Virus record (IMG/VR): IMGVR_UViG_3300048999_000041
Location: 1 to 59,012 of that record
Reading direction: 5' to 3' (one strand)
From: a virus
Taxonomy: Duplodnaviria; Caudoviricetes
DNA: 59,012 nucleotides
The first letter of the stretch is position 1; each line of letters begins with the position of its first letter. Below, piece by piece: positions 3,026 to 47,276 of the stretch. The position numbers and the translations under genes are program-made. The notes under the pieces are model-generated. The model saw only the letters and a list, made by a program, of their open reading frames with translations. It had not been told where the DNA came from and made no database searches.

Positions 3026-3072
3026 ATAGAAATAGTTTAAAAACCAAAACAACAAAAAGGAGGCGATTCTTC

Positions 3073-3555
3073 ATGGAGGCATCGCAGACCCCACAGGGAG
3101 ACGGTTCGCCGGATCAGTCTCAGACGGCTCAGGAGACCCAGGATCAGTCTCAGACGGCTCAGGAGACCCCGGATCAGTCTCAGACGGCTCAGGAGACCCC
3201 GGATCAGTCTCAGACGGCTCAGGATGCCCCGCAGCCGGACCCGCAGGAAGAGAGCCAGGCTGCTGATGCAGCTCCGGCTCAGGCCGAGGAGCAGCAGTCG
3301 GCTCAGCCTACGCAGGATCAGTCTGCTCCGGATCCGGTGGATCAGGATGCTCGTCAGGCTCAGCGTGATACCGAGCGCGAGGAGCAGCAGCGTGAGCACA
3401 ACGAGCGTACTGGTGGTGGCCCGGTCAACGCGGGAGAGGTTCAGGCGGCTCGGGATCTCCACAATGCACGTACGGATGCTGGAGTTCCTCGGCCGACTGA
3501 GGCTGAGGTTCAGGCCGCACGTCAGGACGACGCGAACGGCCAAGATCAGGCCTAG
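3073..3555 (+). CDS. Low-complexity Gln/Asp-rich protein with DQSQTAQETP repeats
   Basis: AGGAGG RBS; 160 aa, predicted disordered. Confidence 0.75.
   Translation: MEASQTPQGDGSPDQSQTAQETQDQSQTAQETPDQSQTAQETPDQSQTAQDAPQPDPQEESQAADAAPAQAEEQQSAQPTQDQSAPDPVDQDARQAQRDTEREEQQREHNERTGGGPVNAGEVQAARDLHNARTDAGVPRPTEAEVQAARQDDANGQDQA
3109..3224 (+). repeat. 30-bp in-frame tandem repeat, ~3.8 copies
   Basis: GGATCAGTCTCAGACGGCTCAGGAGACCC(A/C) at 3111, 3141, 3171, partial 3201. Confidence 0.95.
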
Positions 3556-8311: not shown

Positions 8312-9424
8312 ATGAGCTTTCTCAGTAAGATTTATCATCCGGATCTAAACGAGGCGAACCATACAATTCAAGCAGTCATTGATCCTAGCGCAGAGTTTAA
8401 AGAGGGTGGTCATCCGTGGAGAATAGCATTCTTTAATGCTGATGGTTCGGCGATTGGCGTTGGCGGTGGAGAAATTGGACCAATGGGTCCACAAGGACCT
8501 GCTGGCCCAGACGGCCCCCAAGGTATTCGCGGGGTTAAGGGCGATACCGGCGATCAAGGTATTCAAGGTAATGCCGGAGCTATTGGCCCAAAGGGTGATC
8601 CGGGAGATCAAGGCATCCAAGGAGTTAAGGGCGATCAAGGTATTCAAGGGGTTAAGGGCGATACCGGCGATCAAGGTATTCAAGGGGTTCAAGGTAATGT
8701 TGGACCTCAAGGGATTCAAGGTAATGTCGGAGCAGTTGGACCAAAAGGCGACCAAGGAAACGCAGGACCTGCTGGAGCGCAAGGAGTTAAAGGCGATACC
8801 GGTGCTGTGGGTGCAACGTTTATTGGCGCATGGTCAAACGCGATTGCTTATACCGCGCGAGATGTTGTTAATTACAACGGCAGCTCATATGTCGCTTTAG
8901 CAAATCGTCCTGCGGGTAGCGCAAATCCTAAGACAGATGCAGCGAATTGGTTAGAGCTGGCTCATGGTGGTGGGGAAATTGCTCGTGCAGAATATGTTGC
9001 TGGAGCGGCTTTGGGTCCTGCGGCAGGAAATACGCAGTTCAATGTTCCAGGTATGAATATTGTAGTTCCAGCTGGTAGTGGTCCATTTCTGTTAGAAGCC
9101 GTAATCTCTTGCCAAGTAGTGTTTTCTGCAGCGGCAGTAGCTGCGGATAGTGCGGTTTTTCGAGCAATAATTATGGACGAGGCTAATATTATGGTTACGC
9201 AAGGCGTATTTAAATCTGTCGCTTCGCCATCGATTTCGATTATACAAACACTTAATCCCAAGCGCGTGATTCCAGGCCCACTTGCCGCCGATAAAACCTA
9301 TAGATTAGTTCTTTTGATTGATGCATTTACACACATTACCCAAACCGCTTTCTTTGGCGATCCTGGAGTAGGTGCCACATCTGCGTCAGTTGGTCCTGCT
9401 ACACTTCAAGCAACGGCTCGATAA
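8312..9424 (+). CDS. Collagen-like (Gly-X-Y) fibre protein with chitin-binding-like module
   Basis: Long GXY run (GDQGIQGVK repeats) then GAWSNAIAYTARDVVNYNGSSYVA (CBM5/12-like). Confidence 0.85.
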   Translation: MSFLSKIYHPDLNEANHTIQAVIDPSAEFKEGGHPWRIAFFNADGSAIGVGGGEIGPMGPQGPAGPDGPQGIRGVKGDTGDQGIQGNAGAIGPKGDPGDQGIQGVKGDQGIQGVKGDTGDQGIQGVQGNVGPQGIQGNVGAVGPKGDQGNAGPAGAQGVKGDTGAVGATFIGAWSNAIAYTARDVVNYNGSSYVALANRPAGSANPKTDAANWLELAHGGGEIARAEYVAGAALGPAAGNTQFNVPGMNIVVPAGSGPFLLEAVISCQVVFSAAAVAADSAVFRAIIMDEANIMVTQGVFKSVASPSISIIQTLNPKRVIPGPLAADKTYRLVLLIDAFTHITQTAFFGDPGVGATSASVGPATLQATAR

Positions 9425-26500: not shown

Positions 26501-26530
26501 TTCGCGGGCAAAACGTCGCCTATAATGAGA
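26501..26530 (+). promoter_or_regulatory. CGCG-N14-TATAAT promoter P1
   Basis: TTCGCG-ggcaaaacgtcgcc-TATAAT-GAGA. Confidence 0.85.
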
Positions 26531-27953: not shown

Positions 27954-28027
27954 GGGCCTGTAGCTCAATTGGTCAGAGCAGCAGACTCATAATCTGTCAG
28001 ATCTGGGTTCGAGTCCCAGCAGGCCTA
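27954..28027 (+). tRNA. tRNA with CAT anticodon (probably Ile2, possibly Met)
   Basis: GGGCCTG/CAGGCCT acceptor, GCAGA-CTCATAA-TCTGT anticodon arm, TTCGAGT T-loop; no encoded CCA. Confidence 0.9.
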
Positions 28028-30987: not shown

Positions 30988-31589
30988 AGAAAGTCATTAC
31001 CTATACCAACCCGTTCACCGACGAAGAGGTGAGCGAGGAGCATTACTTCCATATTTCCAAGGCCGATCTGGTCGAGATGGAGATGGAGGAGCATAATGCT
31101 ACATACGAGAAAGACGGCGAACAGCTCACCGGCATGCAGGCCAAGCTTCAACGAGTTATCGATTCCGAAGACGGCAAGGCCATTCTTTCAGAGTTTAAGG
31201 ACATCATTCGCCGGTCTTATGGCAAGAAAGACGGAGATCGCTTTATCAAGTCTTCTGAGATTTGGGCGGAGTTCTCTTCGTCCGAAGCGTATTCTCAGCT
31301 CATATTTGATCTGTGCACGGATGCTGAAATTGCTGGCGAGTTTGTCACCGGTATCATTCCCAAGAACTTGGATAAGATCGCTGAAGAGATTAAGTCGCGG
31401 GCAGATGTGGATCAAAGCGAGCCGGAGATCGACACAGCTCCTGATGTCGTTAATAATGCTAATATTTCTACAGCTTGGCCTTCCGACGAGGACTCAATCG
31501 CTCAAATTCTGTCACCCGACGAAGTGGCGGCAATGGACTCTGATGAACTGAAGTCCGGTCTTGCCGAAGGGCGCTACAAGCTCTCCTAG
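30981..31589 (+). CDS. Conserved phage protein with C-terminal MDSxE module
   Basis: MLKKVITY...YFHISKADL...SYGKK.GDRFIKS...F.SSEAYS motif conserved in this group; TTG start. Confidence 0.75.
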   Translation: MLKKVITYTNPFTDEEVSEEHYFHISKADLVEMEMEEHNATYEKDGEQLTGMQAKLQRVIDSEDGKAILSEFKDIIRRSYGKKDGDRFIKSSEIWAEFSSSEAYSQLIFDLCTDAEIAGEFVTGIIPKNLDKIAEEIKSRADVDQSEPEIDTAPDVVNNANISTAWPSDEDSIAQILSPDEVAAMDSDELKSGLAEGRYKLS

Positions 31590-31601
31590 AGAGGGGTCTC
31601 A

Positions 31602-31734
31602 CATAAAAGGGGTATAGGGCGGCTAAAGCGTCTTATATTAAACGACAGCAACGCTCGGTGCAGATGCGGTACTATTCCGTGGAGGGATATGCTCCGTCTG
31701 GTAAGGTAAACCGACGACATGCGCCCCTTTTATG
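31602..31734 (+). ncRNA. Structured RNA module upstream of the large RNA
   Basis: Perfect 11-bp closing stem CATAAAAGGGG/CCCCTTTTATG; TATAGGGCG/CGTCTTATA, TCGGT/ACCGA, CAGATG/CGTCTG helices. Confidence 0.6.
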
Positions 31735-31750
31735 CTCTATATTTCAAAAC

Positions 31751-32155
31751 GTGATGGGACACGCCCATCGCCGTAAGTCCTGACGCTTATTGTACGAAGG
31801 TTTATGTACTAAGCTAAGGTAATCGGCAAACCTTCTGAGTTAGTCGCAGAAGTTGTTGCAAACCCTGGGGTAGTGACCCAGGTACCTGAGGGATCGACTC
31901 CTCGGGTAAGTCTTATCTAGGTGCTAATCGACCTAGAATACTTCGTCGGGAACCCTACCGTTCAAGTACAAGTACCGACGTCGAAAGTATGGTTGGGTCT
32001 GCTAACAAATACCATACTAAAAATAGAACGCGCAAAAAGGGCCCAAGAGCGCGTTCGACAACACAGCAGTTCATGGCAGTAAAACAAATAACTATAGCGT
32101 TCCCGTAACATTGTTCGCTGGTACGGGCTGATTTACATCCATCAGAGCTATAGTT
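31751..32155 (+). ncRNA. Large ornate ncRNA, ROOL-like (copy A)
   Basis: ORF-free; at least 10 consecutive helices, loop-loop complementarities, and covariation with paralog at 43501; ROOL resemblance is from recall only. Confidence 0.7.
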
Positions 32156-32167
32156 CATAGATCCCAT

Positions 32168-32499
32168 CTCACGGCCGCGACCTCCAGGTAAGAGGCGAGG
32201 GGTGCAAGCGAAAGCCGGACTGGCGCCAGTTTAGGCGGCCGGATAAGCTCTGCGGAGGGATACACAACCTGCCCGCCGTGGGTAGTAAGTAGGCCTGCTC
32301 TACTAATTCAGGAAGTCCGATCCCCCAGACAATTGTGCCCTTCGTCGGTGTACGGTTGATCTGGGGGTAGGCACTTAATCTTAGATAGGTCGAGTATCCG
32401 GTAAAGGCAGGAAGGCGTACATCCAATCGCTTCCACCGTGAGGATAAAATGTCAGTAATAGGCGCGGTAGGGACTTATCAGCCGCCTGCTACCTATCTA
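32168..32499 (+). ncRNA. Further structured RNA modules (3' part of the ncRNA cluster)
   Basis: CTCACGGC/GCCGTGGG (32168/32275), CCCCCAGA/TCTGGGGG (32322/32360), TAGATAGGT/ACCTATCTA (32382/32491) closing stems with internal hairpins. Confidence 0.55.
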
Positions 32500-32501
32500 T
32501 A

Positions 32502-32531
32502 TTCGCGTAAAAAACTACTCCTATAATAGAA
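32502..32531 (+). promoter_or_regulatory. CGCG-N14-TATAAT promoter P7
   Basis: TTCGCG-taaaaaactactcc-TATAAT-AGAA. Confidence 0.85.
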
Positions 32532-32555
32532 GACCCTACCTACAAGGAGTATCTA

Positions 32556-32822
32556 ATGGAAAGCCCTGATTTTACCCCGCGCAATGTCGCGAAGTTCGTA
32601 GTCAAGGCCATTGTTGCCGGAAGAGCTGCTCAGCTCGCCGAAGACGCCATCACCGATTACACGCGGTTCGAGGAAGACGATATGATCGTCGACATCTCGA
32701 CCAGCGTGATCGGCTGGTACGTCTCGGACAAGCTGAAGCCCTACACCGACAAGATGGTCGACAAGACTGCCGACTTCATCGCCGCAAAGCGCGGTAAGAA
32801 GGACACCACAGAGACCCAGTAG
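32556..32822 (+). CDS. Cassette gene, hypothetical
   Basis: AAGGAG RBS, between P7 and terminator. Confidence 0.8.
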   Translation: MESPDFTPRNVAKFVVKAIVAGRAAQLAEDAITDYTRFEEDDMIVDISTSVIGWYVSDKLKPYTDKMVDKTADFIAAKRGKKDTTETQ

Positions 32823-41494: not shown

Positions 41495-41734
41495 ATGAAA
41501 AAGAATAAAAACACTGACTACAAAATTTCGTTCCGGCAGAGCAGAATAATAGGCACGTGGTCTTATATCATCAAGACCCCAGACGGTCGAAGGCTTTATC
41601 CCGTTATTATGGGTACCTTCGCTATGAAGGAATCAGCGGAGAGAGACGCCCTGCGAAGAATAAATCTCGATCGAGCGACATACGAGATGACGGGGACCGA
41701 GCTTGCAACCAAGTACAACAAACAGGAGAGCTAA
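41495..41734 (+). CDS. Hypothetical protein
   Basis: 79 aa; stop overlaps SSB start. Confidence 0.55.
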   Translation: MKKNKNTDYKISFRQSRIIGTWSYIIKTPDGRRLYPVIMGTFAMKESAERDALRRINLDRATYEMTGTELATKYNKQES

Positions 41735-42210
41735 TGGCGTCACCAGACCCAAAGCAGTCCGTCCTCATGGAGGGCGTCCGTATCATCTTCCGCAACTTTG
41801 CGGGTAAGGAGGGTAAGTACAACCGAGAAGGCGATCGCAACTTCGGCGTGATTCTGCCACCGGATATTGCTGAGGCTATGTTGGCGGATGGCTGGGCAGT
41901 GAAGTATCTGCAGCCCAGAGAGGACGACGAAGAGCCTCAGGAGACGCCATGGCTGCCGGTTTCGGCAGCCTTTGACAAGGGGCGTCCGCCACAGGTTGTG
42001 TTGATCACTTCTCGTGGTCGGACTAACCTGGATGCCGATACGGTCGAGACGCTTGACTGGGCCGATATCACCAATGTCGACCTGATGGTGCGTCCATATT
42101 TCTGGGACGTTAACGGTAAGACCGGAATCAAGGCCTACCTGCAGTCCATGTACGTCACTATCGAAGAGGATGCGTTGGCGCAGAAGTATGCGGAGATGGA
42201 CTCGCAGTGA
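41734..42210 (+). CDS. Single-stranded DNA-binding protein
   Basis: ATG 41734 after AGGAG; RIIFRNFAG..GKYNREGDRNF...GIKAYLQSMYVTIEED; downstream of polymerase. Confidence 0.8.
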   Translation: MASPDPKQSVLMEGVRIIFRNFAGKEGKYNREGDRNFGVILPPDIAEAMLADGWAVKYLQPREDDEEPQETPWLPVSAAFDKGRPPQVVLITSRGRTNLDADTVETLDWADITNVDLMVRPYFWDVNGKTGIKAYLQSMYVTIEEDALAQKYAEMDSQ

Positions 42211-42502: not shown

Positions 42503-43078
42503 GTGCTTATTGAGACAGAGAAGTATATTCGCAAGCCGCTTTATGTCAACGCTATTCGAGTCACCGAGGAGAACTTCGACTCTGTGTCGACTTGGTGTGA
42601 GGGCACGGTGGAGAAGGAGTCCGGAGGACCGAGGGAGGGAAAGCAGTTCATCAAGGTCAACGTTCACGGAGTGCCCAAGAGCCAGCGTCAGACGAAGGCG
42701 TTTGTTGGTGACTGGCTGCTCCATACCGAGCGGGGTTTCAAGGTCTACACCGATAATGCATTTCGTGCCTCGTTTGATTCCGTTCTCGATTCCGTTCCGG
42801 ATACGGTCGTTTCATCGCTTAATGACATTACCACCAAAGAGACCGATGGGCCGATCAACAACGGAACCGTCGGACATAAGCCGTTTACGCCCCCTGAGGG
42901 GGTCGAGGCAACGATCGAGCGTGCTCCAGTGGTGTCGGACAGTGCCAGCGCTCCGCCTCCGAGCACAGAAGACGGACGTCGCATTCTCACAGAGGTCGAG
43001 CAGCGAGAGATGGATTCGGCGGAGGTCGCCGAATTACTACGTTCGGGGCAGGCGATTCTCGCTCAGGATCTGGTGTAA
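42503..43078 (+). CDS. Conserved protein with C-terminal MDSxE module
   Basis: YIRKP..V.AIRVT..N...WC.G, AFVGDWLL...GFKVYT..AF..SF domain, linker, C-terminal motif shared with 30981. Confidence 0.75.
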   Translation: MLIETEKYIRKPLYVNAIRVTEENFDSVSTWCEGTVEKESGGPREGKQFIKVNVHGVPKSQRQTKAFVGDWLLHTERGFKVYTDNAFRASFDSVLDSVPDTVVSSLNDITTKETDGPINNGTVGHKPFTPPEGVEATIERAPVVSDSASAPPPSTEDGRRILTEVEQREMDSAEVAELLRSGQAILAQDLV

Positions 43079-43420
43079 ATGAGTGGCGTCCTGGAAACGA
43101 AAGTAGAAAATCACGTTCCAGATCGTTCACTTGCGCAGCGTATGGATGCGTTAGAACGAGCAAATGATATTCGTATCTACCGAGCACAATTAAAGCGAGA
43201 TATCAAGGCGGGGCGTAAGCAGATTGTTCATCTTTTAGAGAACCCTCCTGAAAAGATCGAATCGATGAAAGTATTTGATCTTCTTCTCACCGTTCCAAAA
43301 TTGGGACGTATAAAGGTTGACAAAATGATTAAGGTTTGTCGAATGTCTCCGTCGAAAACCGTCGGCGGGCTGAGTGATAGGCAACGAAACGAGCTTGTCG
43401 ACTTTCTTCGTCGACGTTAG
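43079..43420 (+). CDS. mihF: Actinobacterial integration host factor (mIHF/sIHF, H2TH fold)
   Basis: QRMDALERAN..R..RAQLKRDIKAG, MKVFDLLLTVPKLGRIK, TVGGLSDRQRNEL. Confidence 0.85.
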   Translation: MSGVLETKVENHVPDRSLAQRMDALERANDIRIYRAQLKRDIKAGRKQIVHLLENPPEKIESMKVFDLLLTVPKLGRIKVDKMIKVCRMSPSKTVGGLSDRQRNELVDFLRRR

Positions 43421-43426
43421 TCATAT

Positions 43427-43494
43427 TTAGGTTACGGAGGCAATACTAGGACCACACCGTTATAAAAGGGGTATTGGCCAATTCCCTTAACCTA
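43427..43494 (+). ncRNA. Structured RNA module upstream of copy B
   Basis: TAGGTTA/TAACCTA closing stem, CAATACT/GGTATTG inner stem; flanked by CATATTT and TATATTT. Confidence 0.45.
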
Positions 43495-43500
43495 TATTTC

Positions 43501-43845
43501 TTGGCGGATCACGCCCGTCGCCGTAAGTCCCAGCAACGAAACCGCTTGCGGTTAGTAACTGGGTAAGTCGGCAACCGGTCTGAGTTAGTCGCAGGCTGAA
43601 GGGTGGACCATTAGGCGCGTTGCGTCGTCCATTCATAAACCCCGGTTCGTGACCGGGTACCTACGGAGATCGACTCCCGTAGGTCAATTGGCTTATATGC
43701 AAGGGGTTGACTTGTGCCTCTTAAAGGAATCCTGTACATAGCTGAGAACAGAGTAAAGACAAGCAGCGTTAGCATACGCAGAAGTACGGTGGTGGGGTCT
43801 CCACGGGGGTCTGGGCTTAATCGCCTGGGCCCCCGTGCCTTACTT
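43501..43845 (+). ncRNA. Shorter paralog of the large ncRNA (copy B)
   Basis: Shares CACGCCC.TCGCCGTAAGTCC, TCGGCAA, TCTGAGTTAGTCGCAG, GTGACC, GGTACCT, GATCGACTCC with 31751 and compensatory stem changes; ends in a 15-bp GC hairpin (43802/43823). Confidence 0.7.
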
Positions 43846-43875
43846 CTAATAACAATATCGAAAGGCTTGCATAGC

Positions 43876-44259
43876 ATGTCCGAGTTAACTTTACCAGTTG
43901 ATATCAAATCCCCCTCAGGAAACGTGGTTGCCCGTTTGGAGATGGGCGCAGCAGAGGGCTCAGAATACGTCACTTTACGAATCTTTGATGGTGATATCAT
44001 CAATGTTCGAAATGTGCAGGGAGGTACGACTGATAACCCCAATCTCGATCTAGGCGCTGGTGACTCAGGGGCTCATCGCGGATCGGTTGTTGTCAATTGG
44101 GATGTCGGTAATGAGTTTGCTGTGTTCAACGGTCGTAAAGTCCGAGCTTTTGATGTCAATCGAGATAACAAAGGCATTATCAACTCCCGACAGCCACATC
44201 GATTTTATCACGGCGCTCTTATACCCGACGGTAAGGGTGGTTGGAAGCGTTTAACCTAA
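43876..44259 (+). CDS. Hypothetical beta-rich protein
   Basis: ATG 43876 after GAAAGG; the upstream in-frame extension to 43714 overlaps the ncRNA. Confidence 0.65.
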   Translation: MSELTLPVDIKSPSGNVVARLEMGAAEGSEYVTLRIFDGDIINVRNVQGGTTDNPNLDLGAGDSGAHRGSVVVNWDVGNEFAVFNGRKVRAFDVNRDNKGIINSRQPHRFYHGALIPDGKGGWKRLT

Positions 44260-44580: not shown

Positions 44581-45060
44581 GTGAAGAAGATATTACTGAT
44601 TATTATCGTATTGTCATTTATCTATACCTCTACAGCTTCAGCCGACTGGCGCTGGTCCTCTCCTCAGTTAAAGAAACAAACCGCGGTCTATCATTGCAGT
44701 ACGTTTAAGTGTATTCGTAAGACATATCTCTCGCAACGAAAGCGACTTAAGCATCGTATCTATAAGTACAATACTCGCCGATTGGTTGAGTGGAAGAAAT
44801 GGATTTCCGCTCCCATTGCGGACTGTACTTGGGCCGGGGAGTCATCACCCCCGGGGGATTATACTGGACAGTTTGCTTCATATCGGTACACTGTACTCAA
44901 TTCTCAAGGCTCAGACGCTCGAGGTAAGTATCAGATGATGCCGGATACATATAGTTCTTACGCCAAATACGGCGATTGGTCTCCGCTTGATCAAGAGATT
45001 GCTGGACATAAACTTTACGCAGACCAAGGAATATATCCTTGGAAATCTTGTACCGGATAA
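44581..45060 (+). CDS. Secreted Rpf-like / lytic transglycosylase
   Basis: Signal peptide ending ASA; AGES (candidate catalytic Glu), ARGKYQMMPDTY, SPLDQEIAG.KLY..QG..PW. Confidence 0.7.
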   Translation: MKKILLIIIVLSFIYTSTASADWRWSSPQLKKQTAVYHCSTFKCIRKTYLSQRKRLKHRIYKYNTRRLVEWKKWISAPIADCTWAGESSPPGDYTGQFASYRYTVLNSQGSDARGKYQMMPDTYSSYAKYGDWSPLDQEIAGHKLYADQGIYPWKSCTG

Positions 45061-46005: not shown

Positions 46006-46088
46006 GCCCGAGTGGCGGAATGGTAGACGTAGAGGACTTAAAATCCTTTGGTGGCAACACCGTGTGGGTTCGACTCCCACCTCGGGTA
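46006..46088 (+). tRNA. tRNA-Leu (TAA)
   Basis: GCCCGAG/CTCGGGT acceptor, GAGGA-CTTAAAA-TCCTT, long variable arm GGTG-GCAA-CACC, TTCGACT T-loop. Confidence 0.95.
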
Positions 46089-47203: not shown

Positions 47204-47276
47204 GGGGGCGGAGCTCGGTTGGATGAGCAGCGGACTTTTAATCCGTAGGCCCAGGGTTCGAGTCCCTGCGCCCCCA
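47204..47276 (+). tRNA. tRNA-Lys (TTT), atypical G8/G14
   Basis: GGGGGCG/CGCCCCC acceptor, GCGGA-CTTTTAA-TCCGT, CAGGG-TTCGAGT-CCCTG. Confidence 0.9.

Follow-up and report, generated by a model that had tools for sequence, protein, structure and literature searches.

What is the non-coding element at about 43.6 kb of the virus genome IMGVR_UViG_3300048999_000041, and how does it relate to a similar element at about 31.8 kb of the same genome? The window, that is the whole 59,012 bp analysed here, is a complete virus record with direct terminal repeats (repeat length 127 bp). A preliminary description had taken the element at 43.6 kb, copy B, to be a shortened and naturally minimised form of a large RNA, copy A, held under purifying selection and perhaps able to co-assemble with it. 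Copy B does prove to be a real second copy of the same structured RNA, and ten independent homologs confirm both the structure and its two loop-loop pairings (PK1 and PK2). Comparison of these sequences gives good support to a new family, a structured phage non-coding RNA of ~180 nucleotides (nt) with five helices, PK1 and PK2, of which B is probably a functional and selectively maintained copy. Structured phage RNAs of unknown function are a known category; what is new is the family and its architecture.

Each of the three motifs that had been quoted as common to the two copies has exactly two occurrences in the window, one per copy, and none of 100 shuffles contained two matches. Two covariance models, R1 (built from the homologs L013 and L016 with a hand-drawn structure) and R2 (built from eight members), score A at 110.7 and 120.1 bits and B at 78.2 and 88.1 bits, respectively, and a window-wide search with R2 returns exactly these two copies. 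By R2, copy B belongs to the family, with all helices and both loop-loop pairings present. The core of B folds at -81.2 kcal/mol (z -3.33) and that of A at -60.6 kcal/mol (z -3.26), each equalled by one of 200 shuffles. The cores and the parts of copy B are as follows.

31753-31906, + strand: core of copy A, with five helices and both loop-loop pairings (R2 120.1 bits, E 3.8e-29)
43503-43683, + strand: core of copy B, matched over the full length of R2 (88.1 bits, E 6.9e-21)
43462-43498, + strand: promoter-like motif ATAAAAGGGGTAT-N18-TATATT; the same 13-mer with the same spacing lies at 31603-31639, upstream of A
43503-43519, + strand: helix P1, GGCGGA/CCCGUC with one A-C mismatch; loop UCACG, of which UCAC pairs with GUGA of the P4 loop (PK1)
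43520-43572, + strand: helix P2, GCCG/CGGC, a 5x5 loop UAAGU/UAAGU, CCC/GGG and a variable distal hairpin at 43532-43560
43576-43598, + strand: helix P3, CGGUCUG/CAGGCUG; loop AGUUAGUCG, of which AGUCG pairs with CGACU of the P5 loop (PK2)
43599-43640, + strand: junction J3/4, with an optional hairpin at ~43601-43634, ending in the conserved UAAAC
43641-43657, + strand: helix P4, CCCGGU/ACCGGG, loop UCGUG
43660-43683, + strand: helix P5, CCUACGG/CCGUAGG, loop containing AUCGACU
43684-43875, + strand: non-coding tail of B; contains a terminator-like GC hairpin of 15 pairs at 43802-43837, with CCTTACTTCT after it

Direct comparison of the two copies already separates paired from unpaired positions. 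Differences fall in 21 of 66 helix columns versus 4 of 40 loop and junction columns (Fisher p 0.010), in line with the earlier statement that the loops and junctions are common to both. Fourteen of the 42 proposed pairs differ: eight have changed on both sides and remain paired, three have changed on one side and remain paired, and three are unpaired in one copy (twice in A, once in B). The compensatory stem changes noted earlier hold for P2b (CCU/AGG in A, CCC/GGG in B, with both stems extending beyond), for P4 (CCUGGG/CCCAGG to CCCGGU/ACCGGG) and for P5 (CCUGAGG/CCUCGGG to CCUACGG/CCGUAGG). They hold less well for P3, where CCUUCUG/CAGAAGU in A becomes CGGUCUG/CAGGCUG in B and two of the B pairs are G-U wobbles rather than clean Watson-Crick swaps. 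Both kissing pairs lie where they had been placed (AGTCG 43587-43591 with CGACT 43671-43675, and TCACG 43509-43513 with CGTGA 43648-43652), and B has a fourth PK1 pair that is absent from A. Likewise, the extra hairpin of B was located within 43599-43640, and the 15-pair GC hairpin was found at 43802-43837 with a terminator-like character.

The family was enlarged by motif search. A 21-nt motif, CACGCCCNTCGCCGTAAGTCC, matched four viral contigs, and an independent 3' motif led to the same four. A 19-nt version of the motif matched 46 metagenome loci, of which 8 are real (two of them duplicates, L059 of L013 and L054 of L014), 13 carry a eukaryote-looking element, and 25, judged by eye from their flanks, are seemingly chance matches in coding-like DNA. 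When the viral contigs were searched for exact copies of TCTGAGTTAGTCGCAG, the 9 loci obtained were all coincidental matches within coding-like DNA. A covariance model and a search for stand-alone short forms had been proposed as a check on the preliminary description; the outcome is ten further short homologs in uncultured phage contigs, all of 142-207 nt, and thus 12 distinct members (A, B, L013, L014, L015, L016, L034, L038, L042, L048, L055 and L057).

The eukaryote-looking element is an observation in its own right. It spans ~210 nt on AT-rich, eukaryote-looking metagenome contigs (L019, L023, L027, L032, L036, L037, L040, L041, L047, L051, L052, L053 and L061), reads GGGCAGAGCCCGACGUGAGGC-CGCCCGUCGCCGUAAGUCC-GA ... 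UUUUUUGUU.GUGGACCAAAG and contains the 19-mer search motif, which there seems to form one side of a long-range helix. Rfam has no match for this element, which is apparently not related to the phage RNA. It shows two short collinear matches to the tail of B, but these were weak (E 0.2 and 0.8) and were treated as chance.

Across the 12 members the fold is consistent. P1 has 6 bp and an ACACG loop and runs directly into P2, built of GCCG/CGGC, a 5x5 internal loop (UAAGU/UAAAU), CC(N)/(N)GG and an arm whose length varies from 5 to 51 nt. The three-base J2/3 junction is variable (AAA, AAC, AUC, ACA, ACC or AAGA among members). P3 has 7 bp and the loop AGUUAGCCG; J3/4 is 7-10 nt long in nine members, ends in AAAC, and holds an inserted hairpin in B, in L014 (76-nt insertion) and in L015 (42 nt). 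P4 has 6 bp and the loop UAGUG, with the dinucleotide UA next, and P5 has 7-8 bp and a loop containing UCGGCU. The loop-loop pairings themselves covary: PK1, between the P1 and P4 loops, reads ACAC/GUGU in the majority of members, but L038 has UUGC/GCAA and B has UCAC/GUGA; for PK2, between the P3 and P5 loops, nine members have AGCCG/CGGCU, L015 has CGCCG/CGGCG, and A and B both have AGUCG/CGACU.

In the model-made alignment A8, which covers 12 sequences and 42 pairs, 97.8% of 490 cells are paired and 17 of the 42 pairs change on both sides; none of 500 shuffles reached any of five measures, and with the partners shifted by 1-3 columns, 32-49% of cells remain paired and no more than 5 pairs change on both sides. 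A pattern parse of all 12, in which helix registers were picked among few alternatives for best pairing and which is thus slightly biased toward pairing, finds double changes in 19 of 42 pairs and 8 of 504 cells unpaired. P3 changes on both sides at 6 of its 7 pairs in the family, and RNAalifold, run on the eight non-window members, gives the same nested helices (on an alignment that was also fitted to the model). Given that R1 and R2 misplace P3 in the insertion carriers B, L014 and L015, the A8 counts understate the support for P3 and PK2; core alignments made with MAFFT were unusable in the variable regions. GCCG, UAAGU and CGGC are identical in 12 of 12, which is partly ascertainment, as these elements are required by the parse and by the search motif. 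G-U pairs occur at P4.6 in 7 of 12 sequences, at P5.7 in 3 of 12, and in B at P1.2, P3.2 and P3.4. Read from the opposite strand these pairs would be mismatches, and the RNA is therefore that of the + strand. A helix closing the core, from its 5' flank to its 3' tail, was looked for by inspection only, and none was seen.

The homologs also decide which copy is the usual one. In 9 of the 10 homolog loci the core stands at B's position, with flanking homologs matched in those nine; the tenth, L055, is too short. This position lies downstream of homologs of the open reading frames (ORFs) 41557-42210, 42503-43078 and 43079-43420, or upstream of the homolog of 44581-45060, and the homolog of 43079-43420 precedes the core in four loci (L015, L034, L048 and L057). 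The usual core position is downstream of the DNA-polymerase gene block, within the replication-gene block. A single core is found in each of the related genomes G001 (94% complete) and G002 (100% complete) and in each of the fragments G003 and G004, and none in G005; among the genomes compared, this one is the only one with two. Given that ten relatives are short, that they are syntenic with B and that G001-G004 carry single copies, B is to be taken as having the family's usual place and size, and A as an additional copy at another intergenic site. The claim that B is a shortened or minimised form of a large RNA therefore finds no support in the ten homologs of 142-207 nt, nine of them at B's own position. 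Instead of a "shortened paralog", B is better described as the copy of standard length in the syntenic place, the second copy lying elsewhere next to other RNA modules.

The site of B is a 455-nt gap (43421-43875) without a credible ORF, compared with a 966-nt gap (31590-32555) at the site of A, and it is bounded by two genes.

43079-43420, + strand: upstream gene, 113 amino acids, S13-like H2TH domain (PF22525, E 5.5e-08)
43876-44259, + strand: downstream gene, 127 amino acids, without a family match

The frame of the downstream gene is open from 43714, and a 181-amino-acid reading that would make the tail of B the N-terminus of the next protein was considered and rejected: six homologous proteins have 123-139 amino acids and cover 69-70% of that reading, so the gene starts at ATG 43876. 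No homolog of the 43876-44259 gene was found beside the core in the ten homolog loci, and the window contains no equivalent of the small ORFs present beside the core in relatives. The genes that follow the core vary between phages (a 73-amino-acid, a 59-amino-acid, a secreted transglycosylase-like or a 68-amino-acid protein, or further RNA modules), which argues against a leader dedicated to one gene. The core was not found within 6 kb in 9 of 12 related viral contigs that carry the homolog of the 41557 gene.

The region of A resolves into separate parts. Its 3' half had been described as belonging to one large RNA, but its conserved portion is a separate module, here called element 2, whose position varies among phages.

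32190-32345 (outer limits approximate), + strand: element 2, with the core GUAGGCCUGCUCUACUAAUUCAGGAAGUCCGA at 32289-32320, followed by a covarying hairpin

The conserved block at 32287-32320 (32-34 nt), GUAGGCCUGCUCUAC.A.UUCAGGAAGUCCGA, is 93-97% identical in L013, L015, L016, L048, L055 and L057, and the stem of the hairpin 3' of the block varies between phages while staying paired (judged by eye). Its occurrences elsewhere are these.

L013:12107-12138, L015:3931-3964, L016:3164-3195, L048:2925-2954, L055:118-149, L057:2163-2194 and L113:440-462: element 2 block

Element 2 stands downstream of the core in L013 (685 nt), L015 (~1.1 kb) and L055 (180 nt) and upstream of it in L048 (~340 nt) and L016 (~2 kb); in L013 two small ORFs with ribosome-binding sites lie between the two. 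It is present in G005 (54 kb, 92% complete), which is without the core, and the block is absent from the L014 contig, which has the core. Because its place relative to the core varies and because each occurs without the other, element 2 is a separate module; it has no Rfam match. Further, the first part of the A region (31591-31655) has its match behind the same upstream gene in G001 and G002, so A's intergenic site is non-coding in relatives too. On this comparison the A region is a mosaic rather than one large RNA, and the non-coding stretches of these phages in general look like mosaics of several RNA modules.

Other potential modules were seen in passing. A third conserved non-coding block (L013:11925-12060 and L015 ~3040-3190) is closed by GGAGUC...GACUCC, contains GGAGAGUGUCGCUCGAGGCACAGAAGGUCGGGA and has no Rfam match; a further block, GAUCGGGAGG...GGGACGCCCGCAUA, lies 3' of the core in L014 (~8700-8950, - strand) and between the core and element 2 in L055. 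Upstream of A, AUAAAAGGGG (31603-31612) can pair with CCCCUUUUAU (31724-31733), enclosing ~110 nt, and in L048 and L055 a comparable helix stands directly before the core (GGGGG/CCCCC versus GAGAG/CUCUC). The tail of B is bracketed by a potential pairing of UAUGCAAG (43696-43703) with CUUGCAUA (43866-43873) that ends three bases before the next ATG and is present in both the minimum-energy and the centroid folds; the tail itself has no blastn match in the homolog loci.

Putative signals for transcription frame both copies. The exact 13-mer ATAAAAGGGGTAT occurs in the window at 31603 and 43462 only, and ATAAAAGGGGTAT-N18-TATATT may serve as a promoter for A and B; a sigma-70 scan near B found no promoter. 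P5 with its tail scores as terminator-like in L013, L016, L014 and A and not in B, where the first terminator-like signal is the GC hairpin at 43802-43837. The RNA of B may thus run from ~43500 to ~43847, in agreement with the extent first proposed for it. A different promoter-like motif, TTCGCG-~17 nt-TATAAT(G/A)AGA, is repeated on the + strand at 26502, 26956, 27269, 27596, 28500, 32501, 32869, 33133, 47276 and 47529, in clusters at 26.5-28.5, 32.5-33.2 and 47.3-47.6 kb, and similar terminator-like hairpins (27559 and 33102) precede two of these sites. TTCGCG-N17-TATAAT is probably the phage's main promoter set. It differs from the motif before A and B; one site (32501-32533) lies just past the A region, and none lies beside B.

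How might such an RNA work? Each copy is predicted to fold alone, with PK1 and PK2 joining two side-by-side stacks (P1-P4 and P3-P5) at both ends and J3/4 spanning between them. The geometry expected from linker lengths is one of two parallel stacks of ~16 and ~20 bp, in which P1 and P3 would start at the closed end of P2, P4 and P5 would be two bases apart, and J3/4 would be long enough to cross, so that both pairings are possible in a single molecule. Intramolecular PK1 and PK2 are the most likely fold on this reasoning. The result would be a rigid body from which P2 protrudes, and the invariant P2 internal loop together with the junctions would form a recognition surface for a protein or other partner. 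In several relatives P5 and a U-rich tail probably also end the transcript, which would yield a discrete small RNA, while in B transcription probably continues to the GC hairpin at 43802-43837. Having two copies in one genome would increase the amount of the RNA or extend the period in which it is expressed.

Several observations weigh against B as a functional, self-folding small RNA and set the limits within which that reading is to be taken. Every homolog was obtained with a single conserved motif of 19-21 nt, so the diversity of the family is under-sampled and the invariance of the motif is partly ascertainment; the alignments used for the counts were fitted to the proposed structure; and the intramolecular placement of PK1 and PK2 comes from linker lengths, not from computation. 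The sequencing runs that contain this phage are DNA runs only, labelled soil metagenome, which bears on the expression of B. Among the 12 members B scores lowest with the model (88.1 bits), and its P1 contains a mismatch. An ORF starts 27-59 nt after P5 in four relatives (L013, L015, L016 and L038), too near P5 for a promoter of its own, so in those four the RNA lies within a longer transcript, which fits a role in cis as well. That the element acts in cis, either as a conditional terminator in which P5 and the U-tract are locked by the P3-P5 pairing when a ligand or protein binds, or as a processive antitermination signal of the kind of putL and putR in phage HK022, is an unlikely reading but one with points in its favour. 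P5 is terminator-like in L013, L016, L014 and A, the four ORFs just named must be reached by read-through, every copy lies on the strand of its flanking genes, and both window copies follow the same promoter-like motif. Yet the genes after the element vary between phages, 8 of 12 members have a weak U-tract (5-7 U in 13-14 nt), A's next gene (32556) has its own copy of the TTCGCG-N17-TATAAT promoter at 32501-32533, and no conserved alternative (antiterminator) pairing was seen, by inspection only.

Should the loop-loop pairings instead form between molecules, as they do in the packaging RNA of phi29 and in the cages of ROOL and GOLLD, rings or chains would result, and a mixed oligomer of A and B would be conceivable. 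Since the two copies have the same PK2 loops, each loop-loop pair is complementary within and between them. The sole state that A and B have in common and that is absent from all ten relatives, over 105 core columns, is the U-A pair that replaces C-G in PK2, and this despite A being nearer to L057 (13 differences) than to B (24), as would be seen if the loops were kept compatible in one genome. There is also a precedent that speaks against the intramolecular fold, in that the kissing loops of the phage RNAs ROOL and GOLLD, likewise inferred from covariation, proved to be intermolecular according to passages of one report (PMC12286853). But the shared U-A pair is accounted for equally well if A and B descend from one ancestor and B has since changed faster, the tree of the 12 cores being unresolved and leaving the sister status of A and B undecided; four related genomes carry a single copy, so a two-RNA system is not the general mode of the family; and the linker lengths permit both pairings in one molecule (again by reasoning, not computation). 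Assembly of A (with its neighbouring module) and B (with its tail) through the matched U-A pair into a mixed, RNA-only particle is accordingly put as a distinctly improbable outcome, and if true it would be a natural two-component RNA assembly. That B is a decaying, functionless relic of duplication is far less probable again. Its low score, the A-C mismatch in P1 and the change of the P4 loop from UAGUG to UCGUG, at a position otherwise invariant, would suit a relic, but of the 14 pairs that differ between the copies 11 have kept their pairing, 8 through changes on both sides, differences are concentrated in helix rather than loop and junction columns (21 of 66 versus 4 of 40), B has the fourth PK1 pair that A lacks, and it sits at the family's conserved position. 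The last alternative, a DNA-level element such as a replication origin or a packaging or recombination site, is scarcely credible: the site does lie within the replication-gene block and inverted repeats are common at origins, but the frequent G-U pairs are specific to the + strand and would be C-A mismatches on the other, and long-range covariation between loops has no obvious meaning in duplex DNA.

What sets B apart from a relic is best seen against the family as a whole. A is nearer to the family consensus than B (120.1 versus 88.1 bits), and at the 65 core columns that are invariant in the ten relatives A deviates at 2 and B at 6. Four of B's six deviations make up two compensated pairs. 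As only two of the six are uncompensated, B appears, on column-by-column comparison, to be constrained in the same way as the other members and not a relic. The earlier statement that B is under purifying selection is thereby supported, with 11 of the 14 pairs differing from A still able to pair.

The phage itself is best placed through its replication genes. Its primase-polymerase (1280 amino acids) is 62-63% identical to Gordonia and Rhodococcus phage counterparts, with remoter matches in Arthrobacter, Streptomyces and other phages. DNA contigs covering both copies, possibly from the source sample, show no differences from the assembly. The + strand carries the genes around both RNA copies, and the three transfer RNA (tRNA) genes are also on the + strand (27954-28027, 46006-46088 and 47204-47276); none adjoins A or B, the nearest being 2.3 kb from B. 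Elsewhere in the window, the ORF at 3073-3555 contains a 30-nt tandem repeat in seven copies (3079-3372), and a tail-fibre-like gene (8312-9424) has collagen-like repeats.

Searches of existing collections place the RNA outside known families. Rfam 15 (4227 models) at gathering score yields only the three tRNAs in the window and no family for A or B; with E allowed up to 10, the regions 43380-43920 and 31500-32620 give only noise hits far below gathering; and none of the ten homolog loci has a match. With the A region, the B region or the L013 core as query, blastn against 50,697 deposited phage records returned nothing even at E 1, and the core was not found in the whole records of Gordonia phages Petito and Gravy or of Rhodococcus phage ReqiPoco6. 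A motif scan of 185,579 species genomes gave 27 loci with 0 model matches, and no prophage copy was found among them. A literature search found no description of this RNA.

The implications are considerable if the fold is real. The family would then represent a new class of compact and highly constrained RNA, with 42 pairs within ~150 fixed nucleotides, in soil phages related to phages of Actinobacteria. Two long-range loop-loop helices together with invariant junction bases are the usual signature of riboswitch aptamers, ribozymes and protein-recognition RNAs. The RNA would be small enough for direct biochemistry and structure determination, with two paralogs and ten homologs as a natural mutational map. 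More broadly, long non-coding stretches that are mosaics of independent RNA modules moving among a few intergenic sites would change how such regions are read.

Several known RNAs invite comparison. The c-di-GMP-I riboswitch (RF01051) gave the only weak Rfam hit, and copy A resembles it in having two adjacent hairpins, each after a GCAAAC-like junction; the hit reaches 16.1 bits versus a gathering score of 35 (E 2.9), concerns A only with no such hit in B, and differs from this family in that the J2/3 junction is variable here. The putL and putR RNAs of phage HK022 are a paralogous pair of structured RNAs in one phage, each ~70 nt with two stem-loops, each after a promoter-like site, and their compensatory differences reveal the fold. 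Two paralogous copies, a promoter-like motif upstream and compensatory differences are found here too. The related phages here carry one copy only, whereas putL and putR form a pair, and this RNA has loop-loop pairings, of which we know none in put RNAs. What bears on put-type antitermination here is position, with a promoter-like motif upstream and terminator-like hairpins downstream.

A likeness in general appearance is offered by ROOL, of ~580 nt, and GOLLD. As described in passages of one report (PMC12286853), in which ROOL and GOLLD were searched with Rfam profiles and raiA with a custom profile, both are phage-borne, elaborately folded RNAs of unknown function from tRNA-bearing genomes, with kissing loops supported by covariation, and GOLLD is often >800 nt. 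As far as those passages go, the present RNA shares with them its phage origin, an ornate fold, covarying kissing loops and tRNA genes in the genome (three in the window). They are much larger than the ~180-nt unit seen here, which does not adjoin the tRNA genes, and neither the window nor any of the ten homolog loci matches the ROOL and GOLLD models of Rfam. The pRNA of phage phi29 is a phage-encoded structured RNA of 120-175 nt in which a loop-loop complementarity of 4-5 bp covaries between related phages; it is encoded by a small genome and binds the packaging motor, and Rfam holds a model of this type. No Rfam match above noise was obtained here, two loop-loop pairs are present versus one in pRNA, the genome is a 59-kb, non-phi29-like one, and the RNA gene stands in the replication block rather than at the genome end. 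Both are nonetheless structured phage RNAs with covarying complementary loops, here PK1 and PK2, and the resemblance is thus one of possible working and not of membership.

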